A DNA stretch of 64,000 nucleotides, from positions 3,882 to 67,881 of the forward strand of contig JBAZJG010000005.1 in NCBI GenBank assembly GCA_041651455.1, given 5' to 3'. Positions 1-59,861 of the stretch are shown here, in pieces (positions within the stretch are counted from its first letter, which is position 1; the number at the start of each line of letters is the position of its first letter). The stretch comes from Candidatus Omnitrophota bacterium (GTDB lineage: Bacteria > Omnitrophota > Gorgyraeia > Pluralincolimonadales > Pluralincolimonadaceae). Made by a program: the position numbers and the translations under genes. Below the pieces are notes generated by a model that saw only the letters and a program-made list of their open reading frames with translations, was not told the origin of the DNA and did not search any database.

Positions 1-1184
1 TCAGGCCGAACACGCAGAGCGTTTTTGTCAGGGTGTTTGTCAAGGAGCCGGCTCCATCAAGCCGTATAGCATGGCGCGGGACAGGAACAGTGTATCCGCT
101 GGCGTTCCCGCCGCCCACAACGCCGCTTTACTCGGGCAGCAGCAGGCGGATCTATTACTACGATAAGGACGGGAATGACATCAGAAATGCGGATTTGAAC
201 GGAGTCATGGAACCGGAAGTCTATCCTGTGTATGATATAAACGGTAACCCGACATACATATATAACCCTTCGCGCCCGGCCAGCTGGACCCTTGAAAGCA
301 TACCGGCACCCGGAACCTACATCTACTGGCAACCGGAAGCGCCGTTCTGCGGGTGCTGGCTGTTCGCAAAAGGTGTCCAGGATGATACTTGGCCTACGGG
401 GGTCGGAGGGGAGACCTTCACGGCGAGGGGTTTCAAGTCGCTCGTAACGGACAGCCACGGCACGGGTGTTGTAAATACCGAGCCGAAGCCCCTCTATTGC
501 TTCGGTGATGTCAGCGAGATAAGGATGTATTCAAAAATGTATTACTCGCAATTCAATTATTCTGCGGATAAAACATTGGGTATGATTGGTTCAGATAACG
601 GGGCATCAACGTCTTATAGGGCCTGGATTAACGGAAGCATGGGGAGGCTTTCAACTTGGACCCCGACATATCCGGCCGCGAACACGACGATATTCAAATA
701 TGTCGCGAACAATCAGTATCTCGGCTGGGATTGGTCGGATTTCGACAGGGGCCAGTGCACTATTGGCCCTAGCGACTGGGACAAGGCAGGCGCTGTCACG
801 AAGATGCAGACGCACTGGGACAATTTACGCGGGATCCCTGAGAGCGGTTATATAACGTCGACTCCTTTCTACGCGGGATCTTTCGTGAAATGGGGGACGG
901 TTACGTGGTCTCCCCAGACCCAGCCAATGGCAAATACGGCGGTCACCATGTACCTAAGGAAGACATCTACGGCGCTCCCGTCCGCGGATGTCTCGTGGAC
1001 CGCGCTCGCGAACGGCGCGGCGATATCGGGGACGGACCCATGGATTCAGTATAAAGCGGTTCTCTCCACTACAAATATAAGCAGGGACCAGTATGCGGCA
1101 AGTTCAAGGACCCCCGTCCTTGCGGACGTAACGATAACGTATTTGCCCGCGATAAAAATAGAATATTGGAGGGAAGGGCTATGA
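1..1184 (+). CDS. Secreted/cell-surface protein, 5'-partial (C-terminal part of a larger protein running off the window start). It shares the C-terminal ~25-aa tail and a 'WGTxxW' module with the 1038-aa protein at 3437-6553.
   Basis: The frame is open to position 3. There is no signal peptide on the visible part. C-terminus is '...PVLADVTITYLPAIKIEYWREGL' versus '...PVIEDVSITYLPRTQVLYSREF' in ORF 3437-6553. The stop overlaps the next start (ATGA at 1181). Confidence 0.5.
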   Translation, partial: RPNTQSVFVRVFVKEPAPSSRIAWRGTGTVYPLAFPPPTTPLYSGSSRRIYYYDKDGNDIRNADLNGVMEPEVYPVYDINGNPTYIYNPSRPASWTLESIPAPGTYIYWQPEAPFCGCWLFAKGVQDDTWPTGVGGETFTARGFKSLVTDSHGTGVVNTEPKPLYCFGDVSEIRMYSKMYYSQFNYSADKTLGMIGSDNGASTSYRAWINGSMGRLSTWTPTYPAANTTIFKYVANNQYLGWDWSDFDRGQCTIGPSDWDKAGAVTKMQTHWDNLRGIPESGYITSTPFYAGSFVKWGTVTWSPQTQPMANTAVTMYLRKTSTALPSADVSWTALANGAAISGTDPWIQYKAVLSTTNISRDQYAASSRTPVLADVTITYLPAIKIEYWREGL

Positions 1185-2176
1185 CGACGAGGATATTTAT
1201 GGCCGTATTTATAGTTTTTTGCGTGGTGGCTTCGACACGTGCCGACACGGTAGTTCTGCAGAACGGAAGGACACTGGAAGGCAGGATACTTGAACAAACA
1301 GACGACTACATTGAGATAAAACTCGGGTCGGGCAAGATGAAGCTCGGTAAGAAAGACATAAAATCATTCGAGATTAAGGAGCCGGCCGAAGGTTATTCAA
1401 CAGTAGAACTTCCCGATATCGAAGTGATGCCCGAGGAAGCGGCGGTACGGAAGCCGGTTGCTGCGGATATCAAGTTGAAGGCGGAGTATACGAAGGGCAA
1501 GGTCTTCGTGAGCGGCACGAGCTCCTATCCGAACAACACGCCGCTGAGGGTCTATTTTATGCAGGGCGAGAGCGTCGTGATGGTCAAGGAATCCCGCGTC
1601 AAGAGAGGGGAGTTCTATATCGCGTTCGGGCCTTTCGAGAAGGAAATTATGGCGGGCAAGTATTCGGTGCGTGCAGAGGCGACCATAGACGGCTCTAAGG
1701 CCTATTCGGAGCCCTTTGCGCTGGTCATCGGAAGCGGAGAGCGCGTAAAGGTCGACGAGACAAGGGAGAAACAGTACCTGCAGGATAAAGCGCAGGAAGT
1801 GTCGGAACTTTATGCAGAGCTGAACAGGGCGTATGATAACGCAAAGGCCTCTTATGACGGGCGGAAATGGAAGGGGTGGTCGAAGGGATGGCTTGAAAAG
1901 GTAAATTCAGCGGCCGCGGAATTCAACGATGATTCCCGGAAGTACATAGCGTCCGTCCGTCCCGTTTCGCAGAGGAGGCTTCAGTTCTGTTTCCACCAAC
2001 TTCCTCTCCTGCTTCGTGCATATACGATAGAGTTCAATTCAAAGAGCGCAAAATCCCCCGGGCAGGTGCTTCCGGTGCAGGATGCGCAGGCGCTGAGGCA
2101 GTCCTTTGACAGGGCACTGTCCGAGACGGTACAGGACGTATCCGCCGTCGCCGTGGACTTGAACCATACGAGATAA
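1181..2176 (+). CDS. Secreted hypothetical protein with signal peptide. Contains an 'FGPFxKE..G.Y' beta-rich repeat module shared with the next ORF.
   Basis: An RBS-like gggaagggct precedes ATG 1181. N-terminus is 'MTTRIFMAVFIVFCVVASTRADTVVLQNGRTLEGRILEQTDDYIEIKL'. The motif 'YIAFGPFEKEIMAGKYSVRAEA' parallels 'ISFGPFGKELAPGTYTIEAEF' in ORF 2218-3432. Confidence 0.5.
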   Translation: MTTRIFMAVFIVFCVVASTRADTVVLQNGRTLEGRILEQTDDYIEIKLGSGKMKLGKKDIKSFEIKEPAEGYSTVELPDIEVMPEEAAVRKPVAADIKLKAEYTKGKVFVSGTSSYPNNTPLRVYFMQGESVVMVKESRVKRGEFYIAFGPFEKEIMAGKYSVRAEATIDGSKAYSEPFALVIGSGERVKVDETREKQYLQDKAQEVSELYAELNRAYDNAKASYDGRKWKGWSKGWLEKVNSAAAEFNDDSRKYIASVRPVSQRRLQFCFHQLPLLLRAYTIEFNSKSAKSPGQVLPVQDAQALRQSFDRALSETVQDVSAVAVDLNHTR

Positions 2177-2217
2177 TGTGATATATTTATATAGATAGAA
2201 ACGCATCTGACTGTCGG

Positions 2218-3432
2218 GTGGGGGAGTATTCTGTGGGCAAAACGACTTCGTATAAAGCCGTTAGGACTGTAGCATTTCTGACCGGCTTTTTTTGTTTTTT
2301 ATGCCTTGCCCGGGCGGAGGTATTGCCCTCGCCGAAGATCACGATACTGAAAGTCGAGTATAATGTATCAGAAGGGAAGCCTATTATAGAGGTTGAGGGC
2401 GAAACGGACCTTCCGGAAGGCGCAGTGCTTTCGGTCTCCATAAGGAATGGCCCGGAACTTACGGCTTACAAGGATATAAAAGCAGTGCCGGGCAGGTTCA
2501 GCGTAAAACTTGGCCCGCTGGACAAGGAACTTGACGGGGAATACAGCGTGCAGGTCATGCTGGGCCATGAACAGCCGCAGGAGATTATAGACCGCCTTAA
2601 AAGGGACTCTTCGGATCTGTCCCTCAAGAGCATACAGGCGGTATCGCTTTTCAAGGCGGTCGCCGTAAGCCGTGAAAAATCCCCTTACGGGATCGAGGTC
2701 TGGGCATACAACGAGCAGTACGGCAAGCAGGTAATAGTGCATGCGGACGGCAAGACAAGCCTGCCTGACGGCGCGGTCCTTAAGGTATACCTGAAGCGCA
2801 TAGATACTATTATTGTCTTCGGAGAATGCATGGTAGCCGAGGGCTCATTCAGTATTTCGTTCGGGCCTTTCGGAAAAGAGCTGGCGCCGGGGACGTATAC
2901 GATCGAAGCGGAGTTCTTCCCCGACCTGCAGAGGCCCGAGTTCAAGAAGGTTGCCAACAACGAGAAGATACCCGCAGCGAAAAGTTCCTGCGAGGCAGTG
3001 GTAGGAAAGGTCTCGGACGTCTCAAAGGCCGAGAATGCGGCGTGGCAGGAAATCAACTCGGCGGTGATGTCCATCGATGAATTATATTGGGAGTTGAAGG
3101 ATGTCTACGCTCTGTCACAAACGCATTTCGACCCTGCCGCCTGGGACGAATGGTCAGACAGGTGGCGTTTCCACCTTAAGAAGGTAAGCAATAGCCTGAA
3201 AGACGGCACGGGCAGGGACAAGTCCCTGTCGTTGTATCCGGAGGCCGAAAAGGGCCTGCCGCTGGCGGTAAAGTACCTTTCGGAGATATATGTTATAATG
3301 ACCGACACGCTGAAGAACCGCGCCCCGGCAAAAAAGGGGGAGCTCGAAAAGCGCTGTTATGCCCTGGAAAACGAACTGGTAAAGCTTATGAAAAAGATGA
3401 AAGCCGAACTGGCGAACTCGCCGAAGGTGTAA
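2218..3432 (+). CDS. Secreted hypothetical protein, paralogous module to the previous ORF. Alternative start at GTG 2233.
   Basis: Signal-peptide-like 'VAFLTGFFCFLCLARAEV'. Internal duplicated module: 'VKLGPLDKELDGEYSVQVML' and 'ISFGPFGKELAPGTYTIEAEF'. Confidence 0.5.
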   Translation: MGEYSVGKTTSYKAVRTVAFLTGFFCFLCLARAEVLPSPKITILKVEYNVSEGKPIIEVEGETDLPEGAVLSVSIRNGPELTAYKDIKAVPGRFSVKLGPLDKELDGEYSVQVMLGHEQPQEIIDRLKRDSSDLSLKSIQAVSLFKAVAVSREKSPYGIEVWAYNEQYGKQVIVHADGKTSLPDGAVLKVYLKRIDTIIVFGECMVAEGSFSISFGPFGKELAPGTYTIEAEFFPDLQRPEFKKVANNEKIPAAKSSCEAVVGKVSDVSKAENAAWQEINSAVMSIDELYWELKDVYALSQTHFDPAAWDEWSDRWRFHLKKVSNSLKDGTGRDKSLSLYPEAEKGLPLAVKYLSEIYVIMTDTLKNRAPAKKGELEKRCYALENELVKLMKKMKAELANSPKV

Positions 3433-3436
3433 GAGG

Positions 3437-6400
3437 ATGATAAAGAAGGGTGTGGCTATAGTATTTGCGCTCGGTGTCCTGGCGATGCTCTCATTGATCG
3501 GCTCGACGATGGTCCTGTCGGTCATAATGGAGCGGAAGGGGACCGTCAATTCCACCGCAAAGATAAAGGCGAGATATCTCGCCGATGCGGGTGTCGCGCG
3601 GGCTATCGCAGAGCTCAAATACGGCAATCAGGGTGCGCGCAATGATTCGGTCGATACGCTGGCGGAGACGATATTCGCGAGCGGACTGTCCGACAATACG
3701 TTGCTGAACGGCCGCGGCAGCTACAGCGTCACGGTTATCGATTGCGCGAGCCGCATAAACCTCAATGGCGGTAACTGCGACGCGCGCCTGTCTCTGATGC
3801 TCCAGAACCTCAGTACGGTCACTGCGGCGGGGCTTACGGTCGCGGAATGCGATACGATTGCCTCGAGGCGCCCATATGTCTGCATAGAAGAGGTGAAATC
3901 AAGGGCTGGTATATCAAGCACCAAATTCGCAAAAATTGAGAATTTTATCACGGTATTCGGTTATATAGACCCGAAGACCGTGGATCCGCAGAACCTCGCT
4001 TCTCCTTACGTGCTTCAGCCCCGTTCACCCGTCAATGTCAATACCGCTTCGGAGGAGGTCCTCAGGGCGGTGCTTATGGGCATTGAGGCGATCCATTCCT
4101 GCCCCAAGTGCGGCGGCGACGGGTACTACTTTGATGTTCTCGGGAACCATCTCGATTGCCCTTATTGTGATGGGTCGGGTTCGTCGGGCTCAATAACGGG
4201 CAACCTTGTTATAAACTCGACAGAAGCGCAGAACCTCGCACAGTACATTGTGACGCACAGGCCGTACTTGAACTGGGAATCTTTTTATGCTTCTATAAAG
4301 TCGTTCTTCAACAACGGGACGACGTCATCCGACCAGGAAGTGGTCATGGCGAACGCGAACCCGAATACCGGCTTCTCTTGGGTGCGCAACGATGCCTGGG
4401 CATCAAGGCTCGGCTATGTCGGCAAATACGTCATAGATATAAACAAGAACGGGACGGTCGAGGCATCGGATAGGGGCCTTACCAAGAGCACTACGGAATT
4501 TAGTTTCAACTCCGGGGGTTTCTACGAGATAAGGTCTACGGGCGTTTACAGGACGGCAGGCGGAGTTCCGCTGGCCCAGCGCGGTGTCGTGACGATTGTT
4601 AAGCTCTTCGGTACGATCAGGGCGACATCTCAGTCCGATTTCGACGGGGCGGGTAATACGAAGACCAATATCTCGACGTATCCGGAACCGGCAGGCGTGG
4701 GGGTTTCCGCGGCGGCTTATGACGGGCAGATAATGCTCTCGAGGATAAACCGCGCGACTCCGAGCTCGGGCAAATACTTCAGGGCAAATTATAATACTAC
4801 GTTGAATGCCGATGCAGGAGGAGGTAACACTGCCCTGCAGAACCCCCCGAATCCAGGGTCCGGGGTTATAGGCACGAAGCCGAACATAGGCAGTATTGCC
4901 TCATACAGCTCTAGGGGTGAGCTGGTGCCGGACGGGATGCTTGTGGATTCTTACGATGTCGTATGTCCGGACTACCTGCCCTCAAATAATATAACCTATA
5001 ATGCGGGGACGATGGAAGTATGGTTCAAGACGATGTGGAACAGCAACGACACGTTGATGTATAACGATAATTGCAAAGACCGCAAGGTCTATCGCCTCAT
5101 GAGCAGGGACGAGATAACCGGTGCCGGTACGAAGACATGGCCTTTCTCGACTTATGTCTTTTATTCTCAGAATTTCGGAGGAGTACAGAAGGGGTGTTCG
5201 ATAGGCGCCCAGGGTTACGGATACTACCAGAGCGGCAATTGGTCTTATATACCGAACACGCCGGAAGGTTCCGGGGATTATAAGATAGAGTTTTGCAGGA
5301 ATTATGTAGGCACCGAGGCATTGGGGATCTGGAATTCCGGCAAGTGGCGCCATTATGTCATTACATGGAAAGAGCCGCCGAACGGAGGCGCGTGTGACCC
5401 GGCGAATACCGGTAATTGGCCCGGTGTTTATCCGAATGACCTGAAGGTATACATGGACGGTACCGAGAGGAGCGCGGACCAGTATTTCCACCACTTTGAA
5501 TACCTTGACAATACCTCGGCGCAATACCTGATGCTCGGCCATGAATGGTGGGCGGGTTCGGGGTCGGTATCGCATTACGAACGCAACCAGCTGAACGGCG
5601 TAATAGGTTCGGTAAGGATATGGGATACACAGTTGTCCACGGCGCAGATATTGGCCGAATACGGCGCGGGGCTTTTTCAGAAGACCGGGACATATGTCTC
5701 GCCTACACTGGCCGTACCGGCCTCCGACGGCCCGACGGTAGAGTGGGGCACGGCAAGCTGGACAGGCATAGTGCCCAGCAGTGATGAATCGATAACCATG
5801 GGCGTGGATACGAATATCTCAGGGACTTATCACGGCAACTGGACATCTACCGGGACCGGCGAGGCTATTGTCGACGGATCCGGCAACCGGCTCAGGAGCG
5901 GCTCAATACGATTCAGGAGTATTTTAAGTTCCACTAAAGGCACGGCAGCCCAGCCGGACGCGGATATAATGCAGAATTATACCGATCCGACCTTCGAGAC
6001 GCATCCTCCGGGAGCCGGCGGGAATGAAGCGCCGCTTCCTCCGGGGTGGGGCGCCTCCGGAAGCTGGGGCACTTTCCTTTCCACTAAGGGAAGGCCTGTC
6101 CACGGAGGCACGTGGTGCGCCGGAAATTTCGGCAGCGGCAGGACTTTCATAAATATACCGGTCACCGGAGGCAAGTCCTACAAGTTCGTGGGTTACTCAT
6201 ACCTGCCGAGCGACCCGGACACCATAAATTGCTATTATACGATGCGGTTCAACGGGACGGGCGGATATAATAGCGGGGAGGTCTCCATAATGGGGACGCG
6301 GGACGCATGGCTCTATACCCGTATACCCACCAACGGAGGCTGGGTCACAGCGCCGTTGGATGCCACGCAATGTACTATCTCGCTGTGCTCGTGGCATACG

Positions 6401-6553
6401 GGGTCCGGATGGATAGCCGCAAGCTTCGACGACCTTAAGCTTATAGAGCAGGGCGCTACGGTCCTGGTCCCGCTTACGGATACGCCCGTCATAGAGGATG
6501 TCAGCATAACCTACCTGCCCAGGACGCAGGTGTTATACAGCAGGGAATTTTAA
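3437..6553 (+). CDS. Large (1038 aa) GspK/PilX-like minor pseudopilin-type protein with a C4 zinc ribbon and a LamG (concanavalin-like) domain. Candidate pilus/pseudopilus tip adhesin.
   Basis: N-terminus 'MIKKGVAIVFALGVLAMLSLIGSTMVLSV' resembles the GspK/PilX N-terminus. Zinc-ribbon motif 'CPKCGGDGYYFDVLGNHLDCPYCDGSG'. LamG hallmark 'GSVRIWDTQLSTAQILAEYGAG'. C-terminal tail conserved with ORF 1-1184. A terminator follows. Confidence 0.55.
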   Translation: MIKKGVAIVFALGVLAMLSLIGSTMVLSVIMERKGTVNSTAKIKARYLADAGVARAIAELKYGNQGARNDSVDTLAETIFASGLSDNTLLNGRGSYSVTVIDCASRINLNGGNCDARLSLMLQNLSTVTAAGLTVAECDTIASRRPYVCIEEVKSRAGISSTKFAKIENFITVFGYIDPKTVDPQNLASPYVLQPRSPVNVNTASEEVLRAVLMGIEAIHSCPKCGGDGYYFDVLGNHLDCPYCDGSGSSGSITGNLVINSTEAQNLAQYIVTHRPYLNWESFYASIKSFFNNGTTSSDQEVVMANANPNTGFSWVRNDAWASRLGYVGKYVIDINKNGTVEASDRGLTKSTTEFSFNSGGFYEIRSTGVYRTAGGVPLAQRGVVTIVKLFGTIRATSQSDFDGAGNTKTNISTYPEPAGVGVSAAAYDGQIMLSRINRATPSSGKYFRANYNTTLNADAGGGNTALQNPPNPGSGVIGTKPNIGSIASYSSRGELVPDGMLVDSYDVVCPDYLPSNNITYNAGTMEVWFKTMWNSNDTLMYNDNCKDRKVYRLMSRDEITGAGTKTWPFSTYVFYSQNFGGVQKGCSIGAQGYGYYQSGNWSYIPNTPEGSGDYKIEFCRNYVGTEALGIWNSGKWRHYVITWKEPPNGGACDPANTGNWPGVYPNDLKVYMDGTERSADQYFHHFEYLDNTSAQYLMLGHEWWAGSGSVSHYERNQLNGVIGSVRIWDTQLSTAQILAEYGAGLFQKTGTYVSPTLAVPASDGPTVEWGTASWTGIVPSSDESITMGVDTNISGTYHGNWTSTGTGEAIVDGSGNRLRSGSIRFRSILSSTKGTAAQPDADIMQNYTDPTFETHPPGAGGNEAPLPPGWGASGSWGTFLSTKGRPVHGGTWCAGNFGSGRTFINIPVTGGKSYKFVGYSYLPSDPDTINCYYTMRFNGTGGYNSGEVSIMGTRDAWLYTRIPTNGGWVTAPLDATQCTISLCSWHTGSGWIAASFDDLKLIEQGATVLVPLTDTPVIEDVSITYLPRTQVLYSREF

Positions 6554-6566
6554 GTATGTCTTTAAA

Positions 6567-6610
6567 GGCCGGCAGGGTACTTGTTATCCTGGCCGGCCTT
6601 TTTTTGTTTT
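6567..6610 (+). terminator. Rho-independent terminator after the 1038-aa gene.
   Basis: GC-rich inverted repeat aggccggcagg...cctggccggcct followed by the T-tract ttttttgtttt. Confidence 0.6.
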
Positions 6611-6751
6611 CAGCCGTTCCGGAGCGGATGAGATTGTCCCCAGGAAAGATGTCGAATCAATAAAGAAGGAAGCGCTGCCTGAGGGTTATCCCGGGATCCC
6701 GGATAAGGAAGATGAGAAATCTCCCGCCGCGAATTTTAGGGCCATTTTTGC

Positions 6752-6780
6752 TTGACAACATTTTTCGGCGGAGTTATATT
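6752..6780 (+). promoter_or_regulatory. Sigma70-type promoter for the EF-G-like gene.
   Basis: TTGACA (6752-6757), 17-nt spacer, TATATT (6775-6780). RBS aaggaagg lies before ATG 6837. Confidence 0.5.
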
Positions 6781-35985: not shown

Positions 35986-38900
35986 ATGCTAAGCCAAAAT
36001 TGTAAGAAATATATTATATCATTATCCATCGCGCTCGCGATGTCGTTTCCGTCGATGTCGTGCCCCGGGGAATTAGATTACAATAAGCTTTCGCTTGAAG
36101 CCGCGCTGAACAGGATGTATGAAGTAGACCCCGAAATACAGATAAGCAGACTCGCATGCGATGCGTCCCTCCTCGAGATAAAAGCAAGGAAACTCGATAC
36201 ATTCATGCCGAAGCTCAGCGTCGGCGTCAGTATAGTCAAGCCGGTCGATATCTTCACGAAACTTGACCAGCAAAAAGAGATGTTCTTTGAACAGCAGGTT
36301 ATCATAGAATTCGCCGTGACCTCAAACAGCTTCAACCATATCCTTAAGGACAGGAAAGGGTACGAAGCTAGCATGCTCGAATTGAAGCAGGCGGTTTCCG
36401 AAAGGAGCCGTGAGCTCATCACCGTATATTACGCCGTCGCAAGGGCCCAGGAGAATTACAGGTCCAGCTGCGATAACATCGAGACAGTCGAGAAGGTCCT
36501 GAAGATGGTCGAAAACAGCAATGAATATACGGACGTCGAAAAACTCGAGATAAGGAACTATCTTGCCGTGGTCACGGAAGAGAAGTTAGGCGCGCTGAAT
36601 ACGCTCATCAATACGAGAAGAGACCTCCGCGGGCTTCTCGGTCTGGAGAACAGGGAAGATATCGATATAACCGTCGAGGAACTGCCTGATAATATCAACA
36701 ATGACATCGCCTTCTATGAAAACCCGTTGATAAGGCCGGCGGATTACACCCTCGACATATATAAGAAAAGGGGTGAGGCTGCGGACGTGGCCTCCCGGAT
36801 CAGCGCGTCTCCCTTATTGAAATTTTCTTCCGCGACGATCCTCGGCATCGCCGAGGGCAGGTTCACGAAACTCCAGAAGAAAGTGATAACTGATACGGGA
36901 GTGGAGTTGCATATAACCGACTTTGGCTATACCGGAGGCCTCAATGATGTAAGCAAGATTAATTCGCAGATAGCGAGGTTGGAGGTATTGAAAGCAGAAG
37001 AGGACCTTGAGTATTCGGATTTAATAGCGAACGGCAAACTGGCCGAACTAAGCGGCCTAATAGATAATTACAGGGAATACATAACGAAGACGGAAGACAT
37101 GTTGAGGATGTTCAGGGAACGCCTCTCCTTGCCGGTCATCGAGATAATAAGGATGAACGATAATCTCTATAAGGCCAAGTATGCGATGCAACAGGCGCTC
37201 GTCGATTATACGGTCATGCTCTCGAACCTTAAAGGTGTCGAGCTGAAACCCGAACAGACCAGCCCTCAATACCAGGATATGAGCTTGGAAGACCTGCTTG
37301 CGAGGGGCGAGAGGAGTGACATCCTGACCGTCAAACAGATATCCGAGAAGAAGATGAGGATGGAAAACGTCAGGATCAACGCGACAAAGGCCGGATATTT
37401 CCCGAAGATCACCGGTGCGGCCATACTTGAGAACGCGAACATAGACGGCGTGCCGTCGCAGGCTACGAGGGCTTACGTTGCGCTTGAAGGGCAGCTCTTT
37501 AACTTCAAGAACGGGCAGGCCATCAGGGCAGCGAAGGCCAGCATGGAAGAAATCAGGTACGAGGGCGCCGCGCTGCAGAACGTGGTCGCGGATGAGATAA
37601 TAAAGAACTACCTGTTCATATTAAGGAGCAAGAATACCTTAAAATGGCTGAACGAGATCAAGGGGATAAAAGACGACATAATACGCGATATGCTGGAAAA
37701 TATGGAAGGCAAGGGCCCCAAATATAGTAATTCGGATATACTGCCGCTGGTCCTGCAGCAGATGGAGCTGGACAGGATGATGGCGGATGCCGAGTTCTCG
37801 CTGGCGGTCGTCGAGTATAGCCTCAAGAAATGGACCGGCATACCGCTCAACGAGACGATAAGCGTAAAGGAGCTCCCGGCGTTCGGGGAGGACGAAGGGC
37901 TCTCAGGGTTCATGGCGCTGATCCGGTCCAAGGTGGCGCCGTATTTCGACGGTAAGGCGCCGGTAAAACAAGCCCTGAGCGCCGTCGAAAAGAACAGGGC
38001 GGAAGAGGCGCGGGCCGTCGCGTATGATGGGGCGCTGCTCCAGGTAAAATGCGAGACGAAGGGCATGGAATATAAGGGATGGCATGATCCCGACAGGCAG
38101 GTGTCTTTCAGCGTCTCCGTGCCGTGGGGCGACCGCAGGGAAAAGATAGCCAGGTCTGAGGCGGCGAGGACCCGCATCAAGTCGGAGATCGAGTATTTGA
38201 AGAGCATGGATGCTTATGAAAAAGAGAGGTTATCCGTCAAGACCTCCTACGATTCATCGAAAGCGCTCCTTGAAGACCTGCGCAGCAAGAAGGAGAATAT
38301 GGAATCGCAGTACAGGATAACCGAGGAACTTTACCGGTTCGGCGGCCGGACAAAGAAGCAGATGGTTGATTCCAAGCTGGATTTCATAGTAGCGCAGATG
38401 AGCTATGAGGAAGCCGTCCTTGACAACTATTACCACAATGCGAGGGAGCTGCTGGTAGTGGAGAAAGATGCGGAACCCGAAGGCAGCGAAAGGATATTGC
38501 TGGCCGGATTGCAGGAAGCGATAGACCTTGCCATGCAGAACAGCCGCGAAATAAGGAAATACGAGGAGAGCCTCAAGCTCGAGAAGGAAACATTGGATTA
38601 TTACAAGACGGTGAGGATAAAGGGCGATATCGGAGGGGATTCCTATATAATAGATAACAAGGGCTGGAATGAGACAAAGAGGGTCAAGACCGCGGGGATC
38701 GTCGCGACCGCCGACATTGACCTCGTGAACAAATATATGGTGAAAGTCCAGCAGCGCAGGATCGAGCTTGCCGAAAAGGACCTCGAGCAGGCGAAGTTCG
38801 ACCTGACCCTGAAGGTCGCGGATGCCTACTCGGGCTACCTCGGTTCGCTCGCGGAGACCTCGGAAGTCCGCAAGGAATACGAGAGGCAGAAGACGGTCCT

Positions 38901-39795
38901 GGCGGAAATGGAAGAGCTTTTCAAGGCGAAAGCGATAGCGCATGTGGACCTGCTGAAGCAGAGGGAGTTCGTAGAGAGCCTTCTGCAGAAGTACATCGAC
39001 ACCAACAGGTATACCGAAGGGCACAGGAACAGCCTCGGCATTGCCGTCGGAGGCCTCGACCCGAGGTTTTCGGTCGTGAACACCGAGGTTTACGACAAGT
39101 CCGCCCGGCGCGTCGCGCTTACGGAAGATTTCGAGATCAAGCAGAGGCTGTTGGACGAGCTTACATCCGCGAGGCAGGCGCTCCAGGGACTGCTGCAGGA
39201 TGATCTGCTCAAGCGCGCGGAGATCAAACTCGACATGGCCAGGCTTGATACCCAAGCTATATCAAAACAGGTAAAGACGCTCGCGGTCAACCTCGAGTAC
39301 ATATACCTTACGGATTTCATGGGACTAATAATGAGGGATGAAGCCGCCTTCTCGCGTTATGACAACATGTCGGAGTTTTTCTCGCTGAACTCCATAGACC
39401 AGATATTCAATCCCGCCACCGGGACTAAGGCGAGGATTGCGGCGATAAGCGAGAAGGTCGCGGCATTAAGGTCGAAGTCATATACGAAAAACGTTGTCCA
39501 GGACGCGTTGAGGAGGTTTACCGATTACCAGGTGGCCGTGGCCGATTACGCCAACTACGAGAAGAACGAAACGGTGCTGGAAAACGAGATGGCCGAGAAG
39601 ATGCGTATGGAAGAGGCGGCAGGGAACACGGCCCTGATCAGGCAGAGGGAGCTAAAAGAGACGATACTTAACAACAAGATAAAGAAGATACAGGCATTCT
39701 ACAGGATGATGAAATTTATGAACGAACTGGACCGTTATCTGATAAGATATACTTCAAAAGGCATAGAATCATACGTAACATTCGTCACAAAATGA
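35986..39795 (+). CDS. Unusually long (1269 aa) TolC-like outer-membrane channel protein (OEP family repeats plus extensions).
   Basis: Signal peptide. 'LSLEAALNRMYEVDPEIQISRLA' is a TolC-type N-terminal motif. Recurrent OEP-type coiled-coil/beta segments ('AIRAAKASMEEIRYEGAALQNVVADEIIKNYLFIL', 'EELYRFGGRTKKQMVDSKLDFIVAQMSYEEAVLDNYY'). The stop overlaps the next start (ATGA). Confidence 0.55.
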   Translation: MLSQNCKKYIISLSIALAMSFPSMSCPGELDYNKLSLEAALNRMYEVDPEIQISRLACDASLLEIKARKLDTFMPKLSVGVSIVKPVDIFTKLDQQKEMFFEQQVIIEFAVTSNSFNHILKDRKGYEASMLELKQAVSERSRELITVYYAVARAQENYRSSCDNIETVEKVLKMVENSNEYTDVEKLEIRNYLAVVTEEKLGALNTLINTRRDLRGLLGLENREDIDITVEELPDNINNDIAFYENPLIRPADYTLDIYKKRGEAADVASRISASPLLKFSSATILGIAEGRFTKLQKKVITDTGVELHITDFGYTGGLNDVSKINSQIARLEVLKAEEDLEYSDLIANGKLAELSGLIDNYREYITKTEDMLRMFRERLSLPVIEIIRMNDNLYKAKYAMQQALVDYTVMLSNLKGVELKPEQTSPQYQDMSLEDLLARGERSDILTVKQISEKKMRMENVRINATKAGYFPKITGAAILENANIDGVPSQATRAYVALEGQLFNFKNGQAIRAAKASMEEIRYEGAALQNVVADEIIKNYLFILRSKNTLKWLNEIKGIKDDIIRDMLENMEGKGPKYSNSDILPLVLQQMELDRMMADAEFSLAVVEYSLKKWTGIPLNETISVKELPAFGEDEGLSGFMALIRSKVAPYFDGKAPVKQALSAVEKNRAEEARAVAYDGALLQVKCETKGMEYKGWHDPDRQVSFSVSVPWGDRREKIARSEAARTRIKSEIEYLKSMDAYEKERLSVKTSYDSSKALLEDLRSKKENMESQYRITEELYRFGGRTKKQMVDSKLDFIVAQMSYEEAVLDNYYHNARELLVVEKDAEPEGSERILLAGLQEAIDLAMQNSREIRKYEESLKLEKETLDYYKTVRIKGDIGGDSYIIDNKGWNETKRVKTAGIVATADIDLVNKYMVKVQQRRIELAEKDLEQAKFDLTLKVADAYSGYLGSLAETSEVRKEYERQKTVLAEMEELFKAKAIAHVDLLKQREFVESLLQKYIDTNRYTEGHRNSLGIAVGGLDPRFSVVNTEVYDKSARRVALTEDFEIKQRLLDELTSARQALQGLLQDDLLKRAEIKLDMARLDTQAISKQVKTLAVNLEYIYLTDFMGLIMRDEAAFSRYDNMSEFFSLNSIDQIFNPATGTKARIAAISEKVAALRSKSYTKNVVQDALRRFTDYQVAVADYANYEKNETVLENEMAEKMRMEEAAGNTALIRQRELKETILNNKIKKIQAFYRMMKFMNELDRYLIRYTSKGIESYVTFVTK

Positions 39796-56325: not shown

Positions 56326-57731
56326 AAGCCAGAAAGTGGGTCGCCATCCGCAGGTCCTCCCAGATACTTTCCTTTTTGCTTTTCACGGCCATTCTCTGGT
56401 CGACGACTTACCCTCTTAAGGGCGGCCCCGTGCCCCCCGAAACATTATTCAGACTCGACCCGCTCGTGATCTTCATCACTTCGCTGAGCGAGAGGGTCCT
56501 GCTGCCGGGCATCGTACTATCCTCGATGATGATATTGCTGACCTTGATATTCGGCAGGTTCTTTTGCGGATGGGTATGCCCGCTCGGCGCGGCTTTCGAC
56601 CTTGCAGGCCTGGCGGCAAGGAAGAGGGAAAAGGAGAACGGGAAAGCCAACGCGAGGAACAGGAAGCTCAAATATGTCATACTGGCCGCCGTCGTGTTGT
56701 CCGCCCTTTTCGGCATCCAGGCGGCATGGGTGCTCGACCCGCTCGGTATAATGTCGCGGTTCCTTTCGCTCTCGTTCATACCGTCAGTATCGTCGGCGCT
56801 GCGGGTGCAGTTCAACAATACGTTCATCAATACGCAGTCCATGTCCGTACTGTTCCTCGTCGCTGCCGCCACGGTCCTGGTAAAAAAGCGTTTCTGGTGC
56901 CGCAGCGTATGCCCGCTCGGCGCGATATATGCACTTACGGCAAAAGCCGCGTTACTGAACCGCAGGGTCCGCGGGTGCAGCGATTGCGGGGCGTGCGCGG
57001 CGAACTGCAGGATGGGTGCGATCAGGGATGACTTCAGCTATTCGAAAGGGGAGTGCATCCTCTGCATGGACTGCGTTTATGACTGCCCGGCCGCCGGGAC
57101 GAAATTCGCGTTCGGCGGACAAGACGGGACGCGCGGTGCCGGTACTGACGCGTCGAGGAGGAATATCCTGATATTGATATCGTCCTCGGTGTTGTTGTCG
57201 GGGTTCGGGAGACTCAGGTTTCCCGCGCGCGCTCGCACGGTCATAAGGCCGCCTGCCGCGCTGCCGGAGGATGAGTTCGTCGACCGGTGTATCAGGTGCG
57301 GCAACTGCATGAGGGTATGTATAACGAACGGCCTGCAGCCCGCAATGGGAGAGTGCGGCGTTACAGGCATATGGACGCCGAAACTTGTTCCTGAGATAGG
57401 GTATTGCGAGTATAATTGTACGTTGTGCGGCAACACATGCCCGACCGGCGCGATACGCAGGATATCGCTCGCGCAGAAGCACGATACGGATCTCGGGCTC
57501 GCCGTTGTGGACCGCGAAAGGTGTATATCGTGGGCCGACGGGAAACAGTGCATGGTATGCGAGGAACACTGCCCCGTTCCGCGGAAAGCGATCAAGGCGG
57601 TAGAAGAGGCCGTCAACGGCAGGGTAATACGAAAGCCGGTAGTAGACGGCAACCTCTGCGTCGGCTGCGGCATCTGCCAGAACAAATGCCCGGTGGACCC
57701 CGTAAGGGCCATCAGGGTCAGGCCATTCTGA
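56322..57731 (+). CDS. Membrane-bound polyferredoxin (NapH/MauN-like, multiple 4Fe-4S clusters).
   Basis: Transmembrane helices with 'CGWVCPLGA' and 'CRSVCPLGA', then C-x2-C-x2-C-x3-CP motifs ('CSDCGACAANCR', 'CILCMDCVYDCP', 'CIRCGNCMRVC', 'CTLCGNTCP', 'CVGCGICQNKCP'). Confidence 0.8.
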   Translation: MKARKWVAIRRSSQILSFLLFTAILWSTTYPLKGGPVPPETLFRLDPLVIFITSLSERVLLPGIVLSSMMILLTLIFGRFFCGWVCPLGAAFDLAGLAARKREKENGKANARNRKLKYVILAAVVLSALFGIQAAWVLDPLGIMSRFLSLSFIPSVSSALRVQFNNTFINTQSMSVLFLVAAATVLVKKRFWCRSVCPLGAIYALTAKAALLNRRVRGCSDCGACAANCRMGAIRDDFSYSKGECILCMDCVYDCPAAGTKFAFGGQDGTRGAGTDASRRNILILISSSVLLSGFGRLRFPARARTVIRPPAALPEDEFVDRCIRCGNCMRVCITNGLQPAMGECGVTGIWTPKLVPEIGYCEYNCTLCGNTCPTGAIRRISLAQKHDTDLGLAVVDRERCISWADGKQCMVCEEHCPVPRKAIKAVEEAVNGRVIRKPVVDGNLCVGCGICQNKCPVDPVRAIRVRPF

Positions 57732-57745
57732 AAGGAGAGCGAAAA

Positions 57746-58867
57746 ATGTTCGGAAGGAGAGCAGTGCCGAAGGTAAAATCATCCGATACGATCTACGCTT
57801 ACCTTAAACGCGGGATAAGGGAAGGCGCATCCGATATCCACTGGGAGCCGTACAACGACGGAAACAGGGAGAGCATAGTGATACGCTTCAGGGTAGACGG
57901 GATCCTGAAGGATGCGGGTAAGCTCTCCAGCGAGACGTTCTCGAGCACCGTAATAAACGCGATAAAGATAATGTCCGCGATGGACCCTACGAAGAAGCGC
58001 ACCAACCAGGACGGCCGCTTCAATTTTACGCAGGACGGCACCGGATACGACGTAAGGGTCGCTATCATGCCGACGATATCCGGCGAGAAGGTCGTCATGA
58101 GGATAACGAACAGGGGCACTTACTGCAAGAACATCTCCGAGCTCGGCATGGGCGGGGAAGCCCTGAAAAATTTCGAACAGATGATACACAGGCCGGAAGG
58201 CTTCGTGCTGATAACCGGCCCGTCCGGCGCCGGCAAGACGACGACGCTCTATTCGATACTGCAGAACGTCTACAGGCGCGAGATAAACATCTGCACGATC
58301 GAGGACCCGGTCGAGCTGCAGTTCGCCGGGATAAACCAGATACAGGTCAACTACGAATACGGCATGACGTTCGTCACGGGACTGCGCGCGATAATGAGGC
58401 AGGACCCCAATATAGTGGCGGTAGGCGAGATAAGGGACCTCGAGACAGTCCGGATAGCGTTCCAGGCGTCGCTCGCCGGCTCCATGGTGTTCTCGACGCT
58501 GCACGCGAGGGACGCGGTCAACACCGTGACGAGGCTCATGGACATGGGAGTCGAGCCGTTCTTCATTGCGACCGCGCTGACCGGCATAGTATCGCAGCGG
58601 CTCATCCGCCTCACATGCCGCGACTGCAGCGGCCAGGGCTGCAAACAGTGCAACTTTACCGGGTTCAGGAAGAGGATAGGCGTCTTCGAAGTGCTCCGCA
58701 TGAACGATCCCCTGAGGCAGCTGATATTGAAACGGCCGAATTTCGAGGAACTGAAGGCCGCGGCGATAGGCCAGGGGATGGTGCCGTTCGCGTCGCTTAT
58801 AGAGCCGATGATAAAGCAGGGCCTGACCACTGCCGAAGAGGTCAACAGGGTCCTCGCGCTGGAATAA
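57746..58867 (+). CDS. GspE/PilB-family secretion ATPase, short form lacking N-terminal domains.
   Basis: Walker A 'LITGPSGAGKTTTLYS'. Asp box, His box 'VFSTLHA'. Tetracysteine 'CRDCSGQGCKQCNFTG'. The true ATG is at 57746 after the RBS aaaggagag. Confidence 0.8.
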   Translation: MFGRRAVPKVKSSDTIYAYLKRGIREGASDIHWEPYNDGNRESIVIRFRVDGILKDAGKLSSETFSSTVINAIKIMSAMDPTKKRTNQDGRFNFTQDGTGYDVRVAIMPTISGEKVVMRITNRGTYCKNISELGMGGEALKNFEQMIHRPEGFVLITGPSGAGKTTTLYSILQNVYRREINICTIEDPVELQFAGINQIQVNYEYGMTFVTGLRAIMRQDPNIVAVGEIRDLETVRIAFQASLAGSMVFSTLHARDAVNTVTRLMDMGVEPFFIATALTGIVSQRLIRLTCRDCSGQGCKQCNFTGFRKRIGVFEVLRMNDPLRQLILKRPNFEELKAAAIGQGMVPFASLIEPMIKQGLTTAEEVNRVLALE

Positions 58868-59027: not shown

Positions 59028-59104
59028 GGGCGATTGGCTCAGTTGGTTAGAGCGCCACATTCACATTGTGGAGGTCAAAGGTTCGAATCCTTTATCGCCC
59101 ACCA
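59028..59104 (+). tRNA. tRNA-Val (anticodon CAC).
   Basis: GGGCGAT/ATCGCCC acceptor stem, anticodon loop TTCACAT, T-loop TTCGAAT, CCA encoded. It lies 8 nt after tRNA-Met. Confidence 0.85.
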
Positions 59105-59126
59105 TCTCACACCCCGGGAGCGCCAC

Positions 59127-59861
59127 ATGCAAAAGATTAATGTTGAAGAGCAGATAGGCTACCTGAAAAAACTCCAGGCCGTCGACGGCGATATCTTCCG
59201 GCTGCGCAGGGATAGGGCGTCGAAGCCCAAGCTTATCGAGGACCTCGAAGCGCGCCGTAACGACGAGCAGGCCGCGGTCAGGGGCATCGAGGAGAAGATA
59301 AAGGCGAACCAGGTAAAGCGCAAACAGCGCGAGCTCGACCTGCAGGCGAAAGAGGACGGGGTCAAGAAGCTCCAGGCCCAGCTCTACCAGCTGAAGACGA
59401 ATAAAGAATACCAGACGATGCAGCAGGAGATAGAGGGCCATAAGGCGGACAAGTCCCGCGTCGAGGACGACATACTCGTGCTTATGGAAGAGGCGGACAC
59501 GCTGAATAGGGACCTCGCGAAGGAGAGGGCGCTTTTTGCCGACGCGGAGAAGCACCTGAACGAGGACAAGAAGGTCATAGAGGACGAGATCGCCGCGCTC
59601 GACAAACGGATCGCGGAACTCGAGGCGGAACGCGCCGCCGCGGCCGCTCAGGTCGATAAGAAGGTCCTCGCGCATTACGAGAAGGTATTGTCGGGCAGGG
59701 ACGGTGTCGCGATAGTCGCCGTAAAAGACAACGCGTGCCAGGGTTGCTTCATGAACCTTCCGCCGCAGATGATAAACGAGATCAAGATGAACGACAAGGT
59801 CATCACCTGCGAGAGCTGCGCGCGCATATTGTACATTGAGAAAGAAGCCGATGCGTCATAA
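59127..59861 (+). CDS. Coiled-coil protein with C-terminal C4 zinc ribbon (DUF164/zf-RING_7 family, usual partner of Nif3 and RNase H).
   Basis: Long coiled-coil region, then 'CQGCFMNLPPQMINEIKMNDKVITCESCARILY'. The track start 59034 lies inside tRNA-Val, so ATG 59127 is used. Confidence 0.7.
   Translation: MQKINVEEQIGYLKKLQAVDGDIFRLRRDRASKPKLIEDLEARRNDEQAAVRGIEEKIKANQVKRKQRELDLQAKEDGVKKLQAQLYQLKTNKEYQTMQQEIEGHKADKSRVEDDILVLMEEADTLNRDLAKERALFADAEKHLNEDKKVIEDEIAALDKRIAELEAERAAAAAQVDKKVLAHYEKVLSGRDGVAIVAVKDNACQGCFMNLPPQMINEIKMNDKVITCESCARILYIEKEADAS

Follow-up and report, generated by a model that had tools for sequence, protein, structure and literature searches.

GspK-like proteins with carbohydrate-binding modules and a shared C-terminal strand, probable tip subunits of a minor-pilin operon in an uncultured Omnitrophota bacterium

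The opening region of the window, the whole 64,000-nucleotide stretch analysed here, is probably the distal end of a minor-pilin (minor-pseudopilin) operon from an uncultured Omnitrophota bacterium. Two of its genes, K1 and K2, likely encode paralogous 'K' subunits of the GspK/PilX class located at a filament tip. The upstream DNA was obtained from contig L008, which is 99.9% identical to the window (8 mismatches in 12176 nt). It carries, in order, the end of an rRNA operon, a promoter of consensus type, prepilin genes resembling gspH, gspI and gspJ, and the full-length K1 gene. The order is promoter, gspH-like, gspI-like, gspJ-like, K1, A1, A2, K2 and the scar of a lost A3-K3 pair. The genes referred to below are:

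1..1184, + strand: 3' part of K1 (last 393 codons and stop; full gene at 2293-5178 of L008)
1181..2176, + strand: A1 (331 aa), its start overlapping the K1 stop (ATGA); Lepto_7_Nterm E 6.9e-11, with a predicted layout given below
2218..3432, + strand: A2 (up to 404 aa; start uncertain, placed at 2323 by one gene caller), identified by paralogy to A1
3437..6553, + strand: K2 (1038 aa), GspK-like and a probable tip pseudopilin, bearing LamG and CBM modules; assigned from HMMs, AF2 and Foldseek
6556..6760, + strand: deletion scar, in which the opening part of a third accessory gene (with signal peptide; frameshifted) runs into the final ~15 nt of a third K gene
57416..58867, + strand: GspE/PilB-family assembly ATPase (start uncertain), 51 kb downstream; Pfam T2SSE E 7e-102

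The initial annotation had predicted that a piliated apparatus continues upstream. The recovered sequence does hold pilus-related prepilin genes, and the products of the gspH-, gspI- and gspJ-like genes carry G|FTLIE prepilin motifs both in L008 and in relatives. The core apparatus is missing from this upstream stretch, where an rRNA operon is found instead; no gene for a secretin, platform protein, major pilin or prepilin peptidase lies near the operon. The sole core type IV filament component within the window is the ATPase at 57416..58867, whose NCBIfam matches, to GspE at E 2e-120 and to PilB at E 1e-112, fall short of the equivalog cutoffs, and which is a possible motor for the K system. 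T4aP are near-universal in Omnitrophota (PMC10066038). The ATGA coupling reported at 1181 was confirmed, the overlap spanning 1181-1184 with the stop codon of K1 at 1182-1184. Relatives hold an intact pair of genes, for 358-aa and 1020-aa proteins, at the position of the scar, and the same gap is present in the independent assembly L008.

K2 was dissected into the following parts:

3437..3622, + strand: residues 1-62, MIKKG/VAIVFALGVL..., a class-III-signal-like hydrophobic N-terminus leading into a long alpha-1 helix (HMMs, AF2)
3686..4624, + strand: residues 84-396, an alpha-domain made up of two helix-hairpin-helix (HhH) units (INLN..., PVNVNTASEEVL) set between pilin-type strands at 84-102 and 346-396 (profile, AF2)
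4097..4174, + strand: residues ~221-246, paired CxxCxGxG motifs (DnaJ-type zinc finger) within the second HhH unit (sequence)
4934..5671, + strand: residues ~500-745, LamG/ConA-like jelly roll (Laminin_G_3 E 2.8e-3, PF13385 on homologs, AF2 strands)
5714..5941, + strand: residues ~760-835, strands one to four of the beta-sandwich at the C-terminus (VEWGTASWT ... IRFRSILSS) (AF2; profile hit split into a terminal and an internal part)
5984..6466, + strand: residues ~850-1010, CBM4/9/16/22-like jelly roll inserted in the beta-sandwich before its last strand (Foldseek)
6470..6550, + strand: shared tail PLTDTPVIEDVSITYLPRTQVLYSREF (AF2 pLDDT about 90; alignments)

The earlier description of this protein as GspK/PilX-like with a LamG jelly roll is borne out by HMM matches that all fall under the curated family cutoffs. 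In Pfam these are PilX_N (E 2.6e-4), T2SSK (E 0.014) and Laminin_G_3 (E 2.8e-3, residues 630-738, including VRIWDTQLSTAQILAEYG), and in NCBIfam T2SS_GspK (E 2.9e-9, 36.9 bits against a cutoff of 130). PilX_N, T2SSK and T2SSK_1st, as well as PF13385, are also precomputed on homologs. A profile of the family aligns with 190 residues of XcpX (5vtm_X) at E 0.004 and with the ComEA HhH at E 4.4e-8. The AF2 model (pLDDT 80, pTM 0.73) has the order expected of GspK: alpha-1 helix, two strands, alpha-domain, four strands. At the N-terminus there is a Gly at -1 and no Glu at +5, and G5 is almost invariant in the family; PilX_N covers residues 4-54, T2SS_GspK aligns over profile positions 2-104 and the AF2 helix runs from 2 to 62. 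The feature previously called a C4 zinc ribbon is indeed a zinc finger, although it consists rather of two DnaJ-type CxxCxGxG motifs, CPKCGGDG and CPYCDGSG; it is confined to a subfamily and unconserved across the broad family. The jelly roll is modelled with low confidence at 555-627. For the CBM-like module, Foldseek returned CBM16 and CBM22 with TM scores of 0.6-0.75, normalised to the target, and the K3 paralog of relatives matches CBM_4_9 at E 1.2e-5. The suggestion of a pilus or pseudopilus tip adhesin is a credible one.

The K1 protein is 961 aa in full. Its last 393 residues open the window, and its PA14 module lies outside. The T2SS_GspK model is matched, again below its cutoff, by K1 from L008 (E 6.6e-8) and by the ortholog from L001 (E 1.7e-9); the latter also gave Pfam matches to PA14 (E 1e-7, above cutoff) and T2SSK_1st (E 2.7e-4). 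The possibility that the 5'-partial ORF encodes a different kind of protein that merely shares a tag was rejected, as its N-terminal 190 aa, situated just beyond the edge of the window, match K2 at E 7e-17. The two proteins can be aligned only over this N-terminal region and the tail (13/22), with nothing in between. K1 is thus a second GspK-like paralog, and the tail is therefore common to both by descent. Its part in K1 is as follows:

882..1181, + strand: beta-sandwich module at the C-terminus of K1 (FVKWGTVTW ... IQYKAVLS ... TPVLADVTITY), together with the terminal strand (alignment; profile search)
1110..1181, + strand: shared tail of K1, TPVLADVTITYLPAIKIEYWREGL (BLASTP, motif scan, homolog alignment)

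The genomic setting agrees with a K subunit. In the window's own locus, as in two related ones (L029 and L007), gspH-I-J are immediately followed by K genes, and a distant tail-bearing relative occupies the exact K position of the array T2SSE(MshEN)-T2SSE(355 aa, no MshEN; PilT-sized)-T2SSE(MshEN)-GspF-3xGspG-GspH-x-GspI-GspJ-K-accessory. Several K genes of relatives are orphans, without H-I-J, inside glycan-utilisation clusters. Such K-accessory pairs, with GH5, GH2, cellulase, LacI and ABC sugar transporter genes as neighbours, could mean that these proteins are not filament subunits at all, and that a GspK-like N-terminus has been co-opted as a membrane anchor for periplasmic or surface carbohydrate-binding proteins which work with the accessory proteins in polysaccharide capture. 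The nature of the modules (CBM, LamG, PA14) would suit that role, as would the lack of core machinery adjoining the operon. We regard it as very unlikely: the whole GspK pilin fold and HhH alpha-domain are kept, with INLN and NVNTA signatures, and not the helix alone; the position after gspH-I-J speaks against it; and the orphans could use H-I-J sets located elsewhere in the same genome.

The tails TPVLADVTITYLPAIKIEYWREGL (ORF 3-1184, 393 aa) and TPVIEDVSITYLPRTQVLYSREF (ORF 3437-6553, 1038 aa) share 13 of 22 residues (BLASTP E 7e-5), in keeping with the near identity first noticed. The motif V(K/E)WGT(V/A)(T/S)W, also reported as common to the two proteins, is present in both and forms the first strand of a module of ~90 aa, of which the tail is the closing part. 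When the whole window was scanned in six frames for the tail motif, it stood at the end of a long ORF in K1 and K2 only; two further matches to the pattern lie at 56763 (+ strand) and 4440 (- strand). Beyond the window the tail is widespread. It was kept in all 56 homologs of the first search, including distant ones that align to the query only in part. A profile search with the C-terminal module against 1.84 billion proteins gave 612 hits (cluster representatives), and a scan for the tail pattern in 185,579 species genomes gave 64 loci, all from Omnitrophota or Planctomycetota to judge from record titles or contig identity. One related genome has at least nine copies. The K family has hundreds of members, so far from these two phyla only.

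The tail is composed of two parts. TPV(L/I)xDVxITY is the last strand of the ~90-aa beta-sandwich, and the final ~10 residues, xxx(I/V)LY(W/S)RE, are a strand found in the GspK-like family only. The module lies at the extreme C-terminus, with the last 10 residues, in 172 collected proteins. Another 43 proteins contain 121 internal copies, which end at profile position ~82, just past ITY. The terminal strand accompanies every one of the 172 terminal copies and only two of the internal ones. By a strict regular expression 74 of the 93 full-length terminal-module proteins have a GspK-like N-terminus, and the remainder that were inspected differ only through the strictness of the expression.

These data bear on the proposal that the tail is a sorting tag comparable to PEP-CTERM, the T9SS CTD or LPXTG. 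Here the tail would be a C-terminal sorting or secretion signal read by dedicated export, anchoring or processing machinery (cf. PEP-CTERM/exosortase, LPXTG/sortase), and the proteins would be surface adhesins outside a pilus. The tail is indeed the family's most conserved segment and almost always at the extreme C-terminus; it has an LPxT-like turn (LPRT, LPKT or LPQT), and the C-terminal module is a beta-sandwich of ~90 aa, as are T9SS CTDs. However, unrelated giant proteins contain TPVLxDVxITY internally and in tandem, one of them with as many as 29 copies, and it is therefore a domain strand rather than a signal. Past the LPxT turn about 8 residues remain, with neither a hydrophobic segment nor a basic tail, and no NCBIfam sorting model (PEP-CTERM, Por_Secre_tail, LPXTG) was matched at E < 0.1. 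The tail also travels with the GspK-like N-terminus, and K genes follow gspHIJ, in the place of K, in the main locus and in several related ones. A sorting signal is accordingly unsupported and given the least credence of the readings considered. K1 and K2 are sister GspK-type copies that carry different sugar-binding modules, so the tail is a structural element common to that family, not a new sorting signal.

In the AF2 model of K2, residues 1018-1027 are the strand that closes the beta-sandwich and 1031-1037 the family-specific terminal strand. We infer, by analogy with GspK and CpaL, that the latter could be an in-cis 'C-beta' strand which completes the sheet of the K subunit and is recognised by GspJ, docking on GspI/J. 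GspK and CpaL supply a C-terminal strand of ~10 aa in cis, even across a 470-aa insertion, whereas PilY1/PilC supply theirs in trans, and this strand licenses assembly of the tip complex (Ellison et al. 2026, PMC13533445). The idea of an assembly tag may therefore survive, only in this other sense: the final ~10 residues are family-specific and fit the published strand, with docking putative. The last two strands are only three residues (P-R-T) apart, as in a tight beta-hairpin, and the terminal strand may do no more than fold back onto the beta-sandwich and cap its open edge, with no docking on the pilin domain or GspI/J. Conservation of the tail would then merely follow from that of the domain, and the proteins would still be GspK-like tip subunits. 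In the distant members P0055 and P0056, 10-25 acidic residues follow the strand, so it need not be terminal. The C-terminus of the GspK HMM shows no match to its sequence, nor did the score against that HMM rise when the tail was appended to the N-domain. Covariation analysis of the family had a Meff of about 65. A purely structural strand is nevertheless rather unlikely. The strand is nearly confined to terminal copies of the domain; the consensus ILYWRE is hydrophobic on both faces, which suits a buried strand better than an exposed edge; for a protein of six domains, a pTM of 0.73 points to a compact, closed arrangement; and the docked architecture has experimental precedent in CpaL and GspK (PMC13533445).

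The two ORFs between K1 and K2 had been taken for signal-peptide paralogs sharing an FGPFxKE..G.Y beta module, and this holds. A1 and A2 are related at E 1e-16, both have signal-peptide-like N-termini, and in the common strand region F145, P151, F152 and Y161 are invariant. The product of A1 from the ATG at 1181 is 100% identical to a database protein. Its predicted layout is a signal peptide, an Sm/SH3-like barrel (22-64), a disordered linker, an Ig-like beta-sandwich (97-183) and a four-helix bundle (186-321). A2 has two copies of the FGPFxKE beta-sandwich and a helical C-terminal half, and is without the Sm/SH3-like domain. Genes of this family lie at or overlap the stop of a K gene in about 30 loci. 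We take these co-encoded, secreted proteins to be obligate partners of K; a dedicated periplasmic chaperone or a tip co-factor is our guess as to their role.

On the preferred reading, the K proteins would be processed by a prepilin peptidase and anchored in the inner membrane by the class-III-type N-terminal helix (Gly -1 and no Glu +5, as in GspK). K would dock on a GspI-GspJ dimer, prime growth of the filament and end at its tip, capping the H-I-J-K initiation complex of a type IV filament. There the carbohydrate-binding modules may act as an adhesin for a host or prey cell, or for polysaccharide. K paralogs with different modules would be alternative tips on one common H-I-J set, and this would account for the restriction of their conservation to the tail and the pilin/HhH region at the N-terminus.

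Among known systems, the K minor pseudopilin of T2SS, GspK/XcpX (PDB 3CI0, 5VTM), also has a Gly(-1) hydrophobic N-terminus that lacks Glu+5, an alpha-domain of two HhH units, with (I/F)NLN and NVNTA signatures, breaking up the pilin strands, a gene directly after gspH-I-J, and significant HMM or profile matches to the proteins described here. Its last beta-strand is supplied in cis (PMC13533445). The K proteins are three times the size, some 640 additional residues (LamG, beta-sandwich, CBM or PA14) separating pilin fold and terminal strand, and they score far under the equivalog cutoff (37 against 130 bits). There are two to three paralogs per operon, and at least nine per genome, instead of one, and each K is paired with an accessory gene absent from canonical T2SS. 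Unlike T2SS GspK, they are probably adhesive and not secretory.

The Verru_Chthon cassette is a prepilin set of the PVC group accompanied by a very large protein A. Its models for proteins D, B and C (TIGR02596/02598/02599) are weakly matched by the upstream H-, I- and J-like proteins at E 1e-5 to 1e-10, far under the cutoffs; the model for protein A was not matched by the K proteins. PilC of Streptococcus sanguinis likewise combines a pilin moiety with an Ig-like module and a ConA/LamG-type lectin module, binds glycans and is found at the pilus tip with an I-like partner (PMC9934059). It differs in coming from a monoderm T4P, in its much smaller size (53 kDa) and in its canonical class III signal peptide; it lacks both the GspK-type HhH alpha-domain and a conserved terminal tail, and is not multi-paralogous.

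In type IVa and MSHA pili, PilX (PilK) with PilY1/PilC, and MshP with MshQ, would do a similar job, a large tip adhesin being held on the H-I-J-K primer by a C-terminal strand of ~10 residues; PilX_N is also the Pfam match at the N-terminus of K2. No PilY1 beta-propeller was detected in the K proteins and no PilY1-like gene in the operon. In K1 and K2 a single polypeptide would be both adhesin and K subunit, and the strand would work in cis where that of PilY1/PilC works in trans. A further parallel in architecture is CpaL/TadG of Tad pili, together with other K homologs with large insertions (Thermus, V. cholerae competence pili), in which a large middle region separates an N-terminal minor-pilin-like domain from a beta-strand at the extreme C-terminus; this strand returns to complete the sheet of that domain, and assembly requires it (PMC13533445). 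A sequence relationship was not detected, the Pfam and NCBIfam hits including no TadE/TadG-type family. The modules in the middle are different ones, and the operon is of the GspHIJK and not the Tad type. With strand docking drawn from this analogy, we propose that the K proteins share the CpaL/TadG type of architecture, with a C-terminal strand returning to the N-terminal domain.

The first 6,553 nt of the window contain four tightly packed ORFs, all read in the same direction:

up to 1184, + strand, K1, a 5'-truncated ORF
1181-2176, + strand, ORF2, 331 aa
2218-3432, + strand, ORF3, up to 404 aa
3437-6553, + strand, K2, 1038 aa

The ATGA coupling at 1181 reported in the initial annotation is real, the end of K1 and the start of ORF2 overlapping at 1181-1184. 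Homologs of K2 carry the annotation Candidatus Omnitrophota, and an Omnitrophota MAG encodes a protein with 100% identity to ORF2. The same annotation had expected a piliated apparatus to continue upstream of the window, and pilus genes were found there on L008, an independent contig that overlaps the window by 12,176 nt with 8 mismatches. The upstream order on L008 is the 3' end of a 23S rRNA gene and a 5S rRNA gene, a promoter, three prepilin genes and the gene of the 961-aa K1. The three prepilins have G/FTLIE motifs (the slash marks the cleavage site) and match the GspH, GspI/PilV and GspJ models. A K gene is thus directly 3' of gspH, gspI and gspJ homologs in the window's own population, and it also follows them in the loci L001-L005, L007 and L029; the same gene order is seen in relatives at 50-92% identity. 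A distant member with the same tail fills the K slot in the complete series T2SSE(MshEN)-T2SSE-T2SSE(MshEN)-GspF-GspGx3-GspH-x-GspI-GspJ-K, where the second T2SSE has 355 aa, lacks MshEN and is PilT-sized.

The L008 promoter matches the sigma-70 consensus at 12/12 positions and has an extended -10 element. Within L008 1-605, a hairpin with a T-run comes after the rRNA genes, which were recognised by eye through sequence signatures, and precedes the perfect TTGACA-16-TGGTATAAT promoter. Since the promoter ends only 7 nt 5' of the gspH-like start codon, the sequence suggests a transcript that is leaderless or has a very short leader.

Downstream of the operon lie EF-G, YebC, RuvCAB, SpoIID and other housekeeping genes. 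Pilus machinery was sought in the rest of the window and one gene was found:

57416-58867, + strand, GspE/PilB-type ATPase (T2SSE, E 7e-102)

Its ORF overlaps an upstream ferredoxin-like gene, so the true start is probably later. This lone ATPase adjoins a CT398-like coiled-coil/zinc-ribbon protein at 59034-59861. Elsewhere, a 1269-aa ORF with a TolC/OEP domain (35986-39795, +) is directly 5' of a 3075-aa ORF (39792-49019, +) having a GH76-like region (residues 162-271), GT2_3 and a 1,3-beta-glucan-synthase domain of FKS/GT48 type (PF02364, E 2.4e-24, residues 2139-2587). A glucan synthase of FKS type is an unusual find in a bacterium.

K1 begins NNRGVALLMAIGVLGLLSLIG..., and its start aligns with the N-terminal 190 residues of K2 (E 7e-17); outside those residues and the tail no alignment between the two proteins was obtained. 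The N-termini, MIKKG/VAIVFALGVL... in K2 and NNRG/VALLMAIGVL... in K1, have Gly at -1 of the predicted cleavage site and Phe or Met at +5, and that Gly is conserved in at least 90% of the family. Gly at -1 without Glu at +5 is a hallmark of GspK. The GFTLxE motif is indeed lacking from the 1038-aa protein, as had been noted, and its lack is expected of a K subunit. The search of K2 for the GspK/PilX and LamG domains proposed for it gave both, together with T2SSK and a DnaJ-type zinc finger, but all four Pfam matches (PilX_N, Laminin_G_3, T2SSK and the zinc finger) are sub-threshold. NCBIfam NF037980 (T2SS_GspK) gave E 2.9e-9 for K2 and 1.7e-9 for the K1 ortholog in locus L001, and Pfam gave PilX_N at E 2.6e-4 for K2 and T2SSK_1st at E 2.7e-4 for the same ortholog; these GspK/PilX scores are all under the curated cutoffs (36.9 against 130, 21.3 against 25.5 and 22.1 against 26.2). 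Several homologs have precomputed PF03934 or PF14341 matches. A profile built from 71 members of the family can be aligned with 190 residues of XcpX, a GspK homolog of solved structure (5vtm_X, XcpX 22-217), at E 0.004, across the (I/F)NLN and NVNTA signatures, and with the ComEA helix-hairpin-helix at E 4e-8. The AF2 model of K2 (pLDDT 80, pTM 0.73) has the following elements, by residue:

2-62, alpha-1 helix
84-102, strands
115-325, helical domain with a small CxxCxGxG zinc-finger insert
346-396, strands
about 500-745, LamG-like region
768-832, beta-sandwich
864-1004, jelly roll
1018-1027 and 1031-1037, two terminal strands

Profile and element order together support a pilin fold interrupted by an alpha-domain in which helix-hairpin-helix units stand in tandem. 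Two CxxCxGxG motifs of the DnaJ-type zinc finger (window 4097-4174, K2 residues 221-246) lie inside the second of these units; the pair belongs to an exported protein, is conserved in the close subfamily only, and may bind metal or else form disulfides outside the cytoplasm.

The modules that follow are candidate adhesin modules. PA14 is above the Pfam cutoff in the K1 ortholog of L001. Laminin_G_3 (PF13385) matches K2 at E 2.8e-3, with 18.2 bits against a cutoff of 27.6, and is precomputed on nine homologs; the corresponding region of the model is all-beta, with low confidence at residues 555-627. Foldseek matched the jelly roll to CBM16/CBM22 at E 1e-6 to 5e-7 (TM 0.6-0.75 normalised to the target), and PF02018 (CBM_4_9) is above cutoff, at E 1.2e-5, on K3, a paralog kept in relatives. 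The jelly roll as modelled is a CBM4/9/16/22-type module and a predicted carbohydrate binder; it is inserted within the C-terminal beta-sandwich, ahead of the last strand. Our conclusion is that the paralogs K1 and K2 are tip pseudopilins of the GspK/PilX class, fused to putative carbohydrate-binding modules.

The shared C-terminal tail which had first drawn attention to K1 and K2 is genuine. The two ends, TPVLADVTITYLPAIKIEYWREGL and TPVIEDVSITYLPRTQVLYSREF, have 13/22 identities in BLASTP (E 7e-5), and in a six-frame scan of the window only K1 and K2 are long ORFs ending in it, the pattern having two other matches elsewhere. A profile of the tail module (the last ~100 residues) was searched exhaustively by HMM against 1.84 billion representative proteins and found 612; a word-indexed homolog search with the same profile found short contig-end fragments only. 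Simple local duplication, which would have confined the tail to this locus, is rejected because the tail is conserved over hundreds of proteins in two phyla.

The anatomy of the tail was re-analysed on 215 collected sequences. In 172 the module is at the extreme C-terminus, the match reaching the profile end, in proteins of 670-1770 aa. A strict GspK-like N-terminus expression is matched by 74 of the 93 full-length proteins with a terminal module, and those inspected among the other 19 deviate only through its strictness. The remaining 43 sequences are unrelated giant proteins (up to 5081 aa, with up to 29 copies each and 121 internal copies in all), three of them with prepilin N-termini. Internal copies end at about profile position 82, directly after ...ITY. 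Since terminal copies run to the profile end and internal ones stop short of it, the tail is composite. Its first part, (D/E)TPV(L/F)(D/E)D(V/I)(T/S)(I/V)TY, closes a widespread beta-sandwich as its last strand; its second part, the last ~10 residues (LPxTxILYWRE), is specific to the GspK-like family. The sandwich, of about 80 aa and ending ...RY(I/L)QYR..L.T.D...TP.L.D(V/I).I.Y, is a widespread repeat of giant secreted proteins (P0084, P0085, P0090, P0137, P0144 and others), often C-terminal to GH16, ConA-like or GH59-lectin domains. At the tested positions it falls outside every Pfam family, and it seems to be a domain family not yet described.

The tail had been compared with sorting tags such as PEP-CTERM, LPXTG and the T9SS CTD. 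That comparison is not supported: the NCBIfam models for the three (Por_Secre_tail for the last) do not match the tail proteins at E <0.1, only ~8 non-hydrophobic residues and no hydrophobic anchor follow the LPxT-like turn, and the motif core is a domain strand that recurs in internal copies. The locus reveals no new protein-sorting system.

A role in the pilin fold was also considered. In PilC/PilY1 the last ~10 residues form a beta-strand which is added to the PilK sheet and cradled by PilJ, while GspK and CpaL provide the strand in cis, CpaL across a ~470-residue insertion; the strand is required for filament initiation (Ellison et al., PNAS 2026, PMC13533445). The K family is built like the cis-strand proteins of that study. 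A return of the whole tail to the pilin fold is rejected, because its first strand belongs to the beta-sandwich with internal repeat copies. The family-specific terminal strand is present, and the K-type N-domain and this strand are all that the paralogs K1 and K2 have in common; the K paralogs would have to work with one and the same H-I-J set. By analogy with GspK and CpaL, we give about an even chance to the proposal that the terminal strand completes the K sheet in cis, where it would touch the J subunit. Covariation between tail and N-terminal domain (APC-corrected mutual information, 89 members, Meff ~65) gave only noise-level or phylogenetic signals. Joining the tail in silico to the N-domain left the score against the GspK HMM at the value that the N-domain has by itself, so the tail has no sequence-level equivalence to the GspK C-terminus. 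With a turn of only 3 residues between the last two strands of K2, the terminal strand may also be a plain hairpin on the beta-sandwich.

ORF2 and ORF3 are paralogs (E 1e-16), as the initial annotation had it. In the model of ORF2 (pLDDT 77) a signal peptide leads into an Sm/SH3-like barrel (22-64), which a disordered linker connects to an Ig-like sandwich containing FGPFxKE (97-183); a four-helix bundle (186-321) comes last. In ORF3 the sandwich occurs twice, along with the bundle. A fold search with the accessory protein gave generic Ig-like and Sm-like matches only (E ~1e-3). The start of ORF3 is ambiguous (window 2218-2323): the gene caller chose 2323, cutting off the signal peptide, and the GTG at 2218 gives an N-terminus like that of orthologs with a signal peptide. 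An accessory homolog is found at, or overlapping, the K-gene stop in ~30 loci, distant ones included, and its reading frame often opens right at that stop. K plus accessory is a conserved two-gene cassette, and the locus marks out an uncharacterised family of accessory proteins closely tied to the K proteins.

With the tail itself as the search pattern, a scan of 185,579 species genomes gave 64 loci. Record titles or contig identity place every one of them in MAGs of Omnitrophota or Planctomycetota, a few automated labels differing. Of the genomes in that scan, the one nearest to the window's (92% identity) encodes at least nine K proteins with the tail, spread over five loci, of which one reads as a second prepilin x2 + J-like-K-x-K-acc-K-acc, and the others include orphan K-accessory pairs beside glycan-utilisation genes. 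The related genome also encodes, at L023 4548-5873, two small proteins whose C-termini (…LLLGSGLVGILGFARRKKA) are typical of PEP-CTERM signals; their genes are just 5' of an orphan pair of K and accessory genes and a cluster for ABC sugar transport. The window itself has lost a cassette. Positions 6556-6760 are a deletion scar in which the start of a third accessory gene, with its signal-peptide codons, runs directly into what is left of the K3 gene, its last ~15 nt; relatives have an intact pair of 358 and 1020 aa at this site, ~3.9 kb having been lost compared with L001 13346-17244. The independent assembly L008 has the same deletion. K genes are present in many copies per genome, and their content differs between close strains. 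In the Planctomycetota MAG DASPJR01 (L060, L061 and L062) the members have 1650-1700 aa and each is followed by one or two secreted proteins of ~145-225 aa ending RRRGGI/GGL, a cassette design that differs from the Omnitrophota pair; the ORFs 5' of the member in L061 and L062 resemble an ECF sigma factor and an anti-sigma protein (N-termini, by eye).

Omnitrophota are uncultured nanobacteria thought to be attached to, or to prey on, other cells. Their few conserved 'symbiosis' traits include type IV pili, and T4aP genes are near-universal in them (PMC10066038). The locus offers a testable candidate through which these pili may recognise a host or glycans. We also consider, as an unlikely proposal, that the K-accessory pair is a swappable tip cassette. 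The co-encoded accessory protein, acting as a dedicated periplasmic chaperone/loader, would bind the LPxT...YWRE terminal hairpin first and pass alternative giant K adhesins to a single GspH-I-J primer. The ultra-small cell could then switch pilus-tip specificity among at least nine lectin-type heads, and strains would gain and lose cassettes, the scar in the window exemplifying loss. If true, such cassettes would be a determinant of host or prey range without a known parallel among type IV filaments. The K family further lends itself to testing the beta-strand-addition model of tip licensing put forward in 2026, with hundreds of homologs, insertions of 300-1400 residues and one short terminal strand always kept.

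The nearest known proteins are GspK/XcpX, the CpaL-type K analogs, PilX plus PilY1, and the lectin-bearing modular pilin PilC of S. sanguinis. PilY1/PilC is a separate non-pilin protein encoded after pilX, whereas K1 and K2 have pilin-like N-termini of their own, and the PilY1/PilC family (C-terminal beta-propeller) is absent from their Pfam matches. GspK, pseudopilins and K-adhesin fusions are mentioned in neither of two Omnitrophota genomics papers, one of them PMC10066038. Compared with these systems, the proteins described here belong to a large, lineage-restricted family of putative K-subunit/adhesin fusions with interchangeable PA14, LamG and CBM heads, and what sets them apart are the fusions themselves, the family-wide terminal strand, the multi-paralog cassettes and the dedicated accessory partner.
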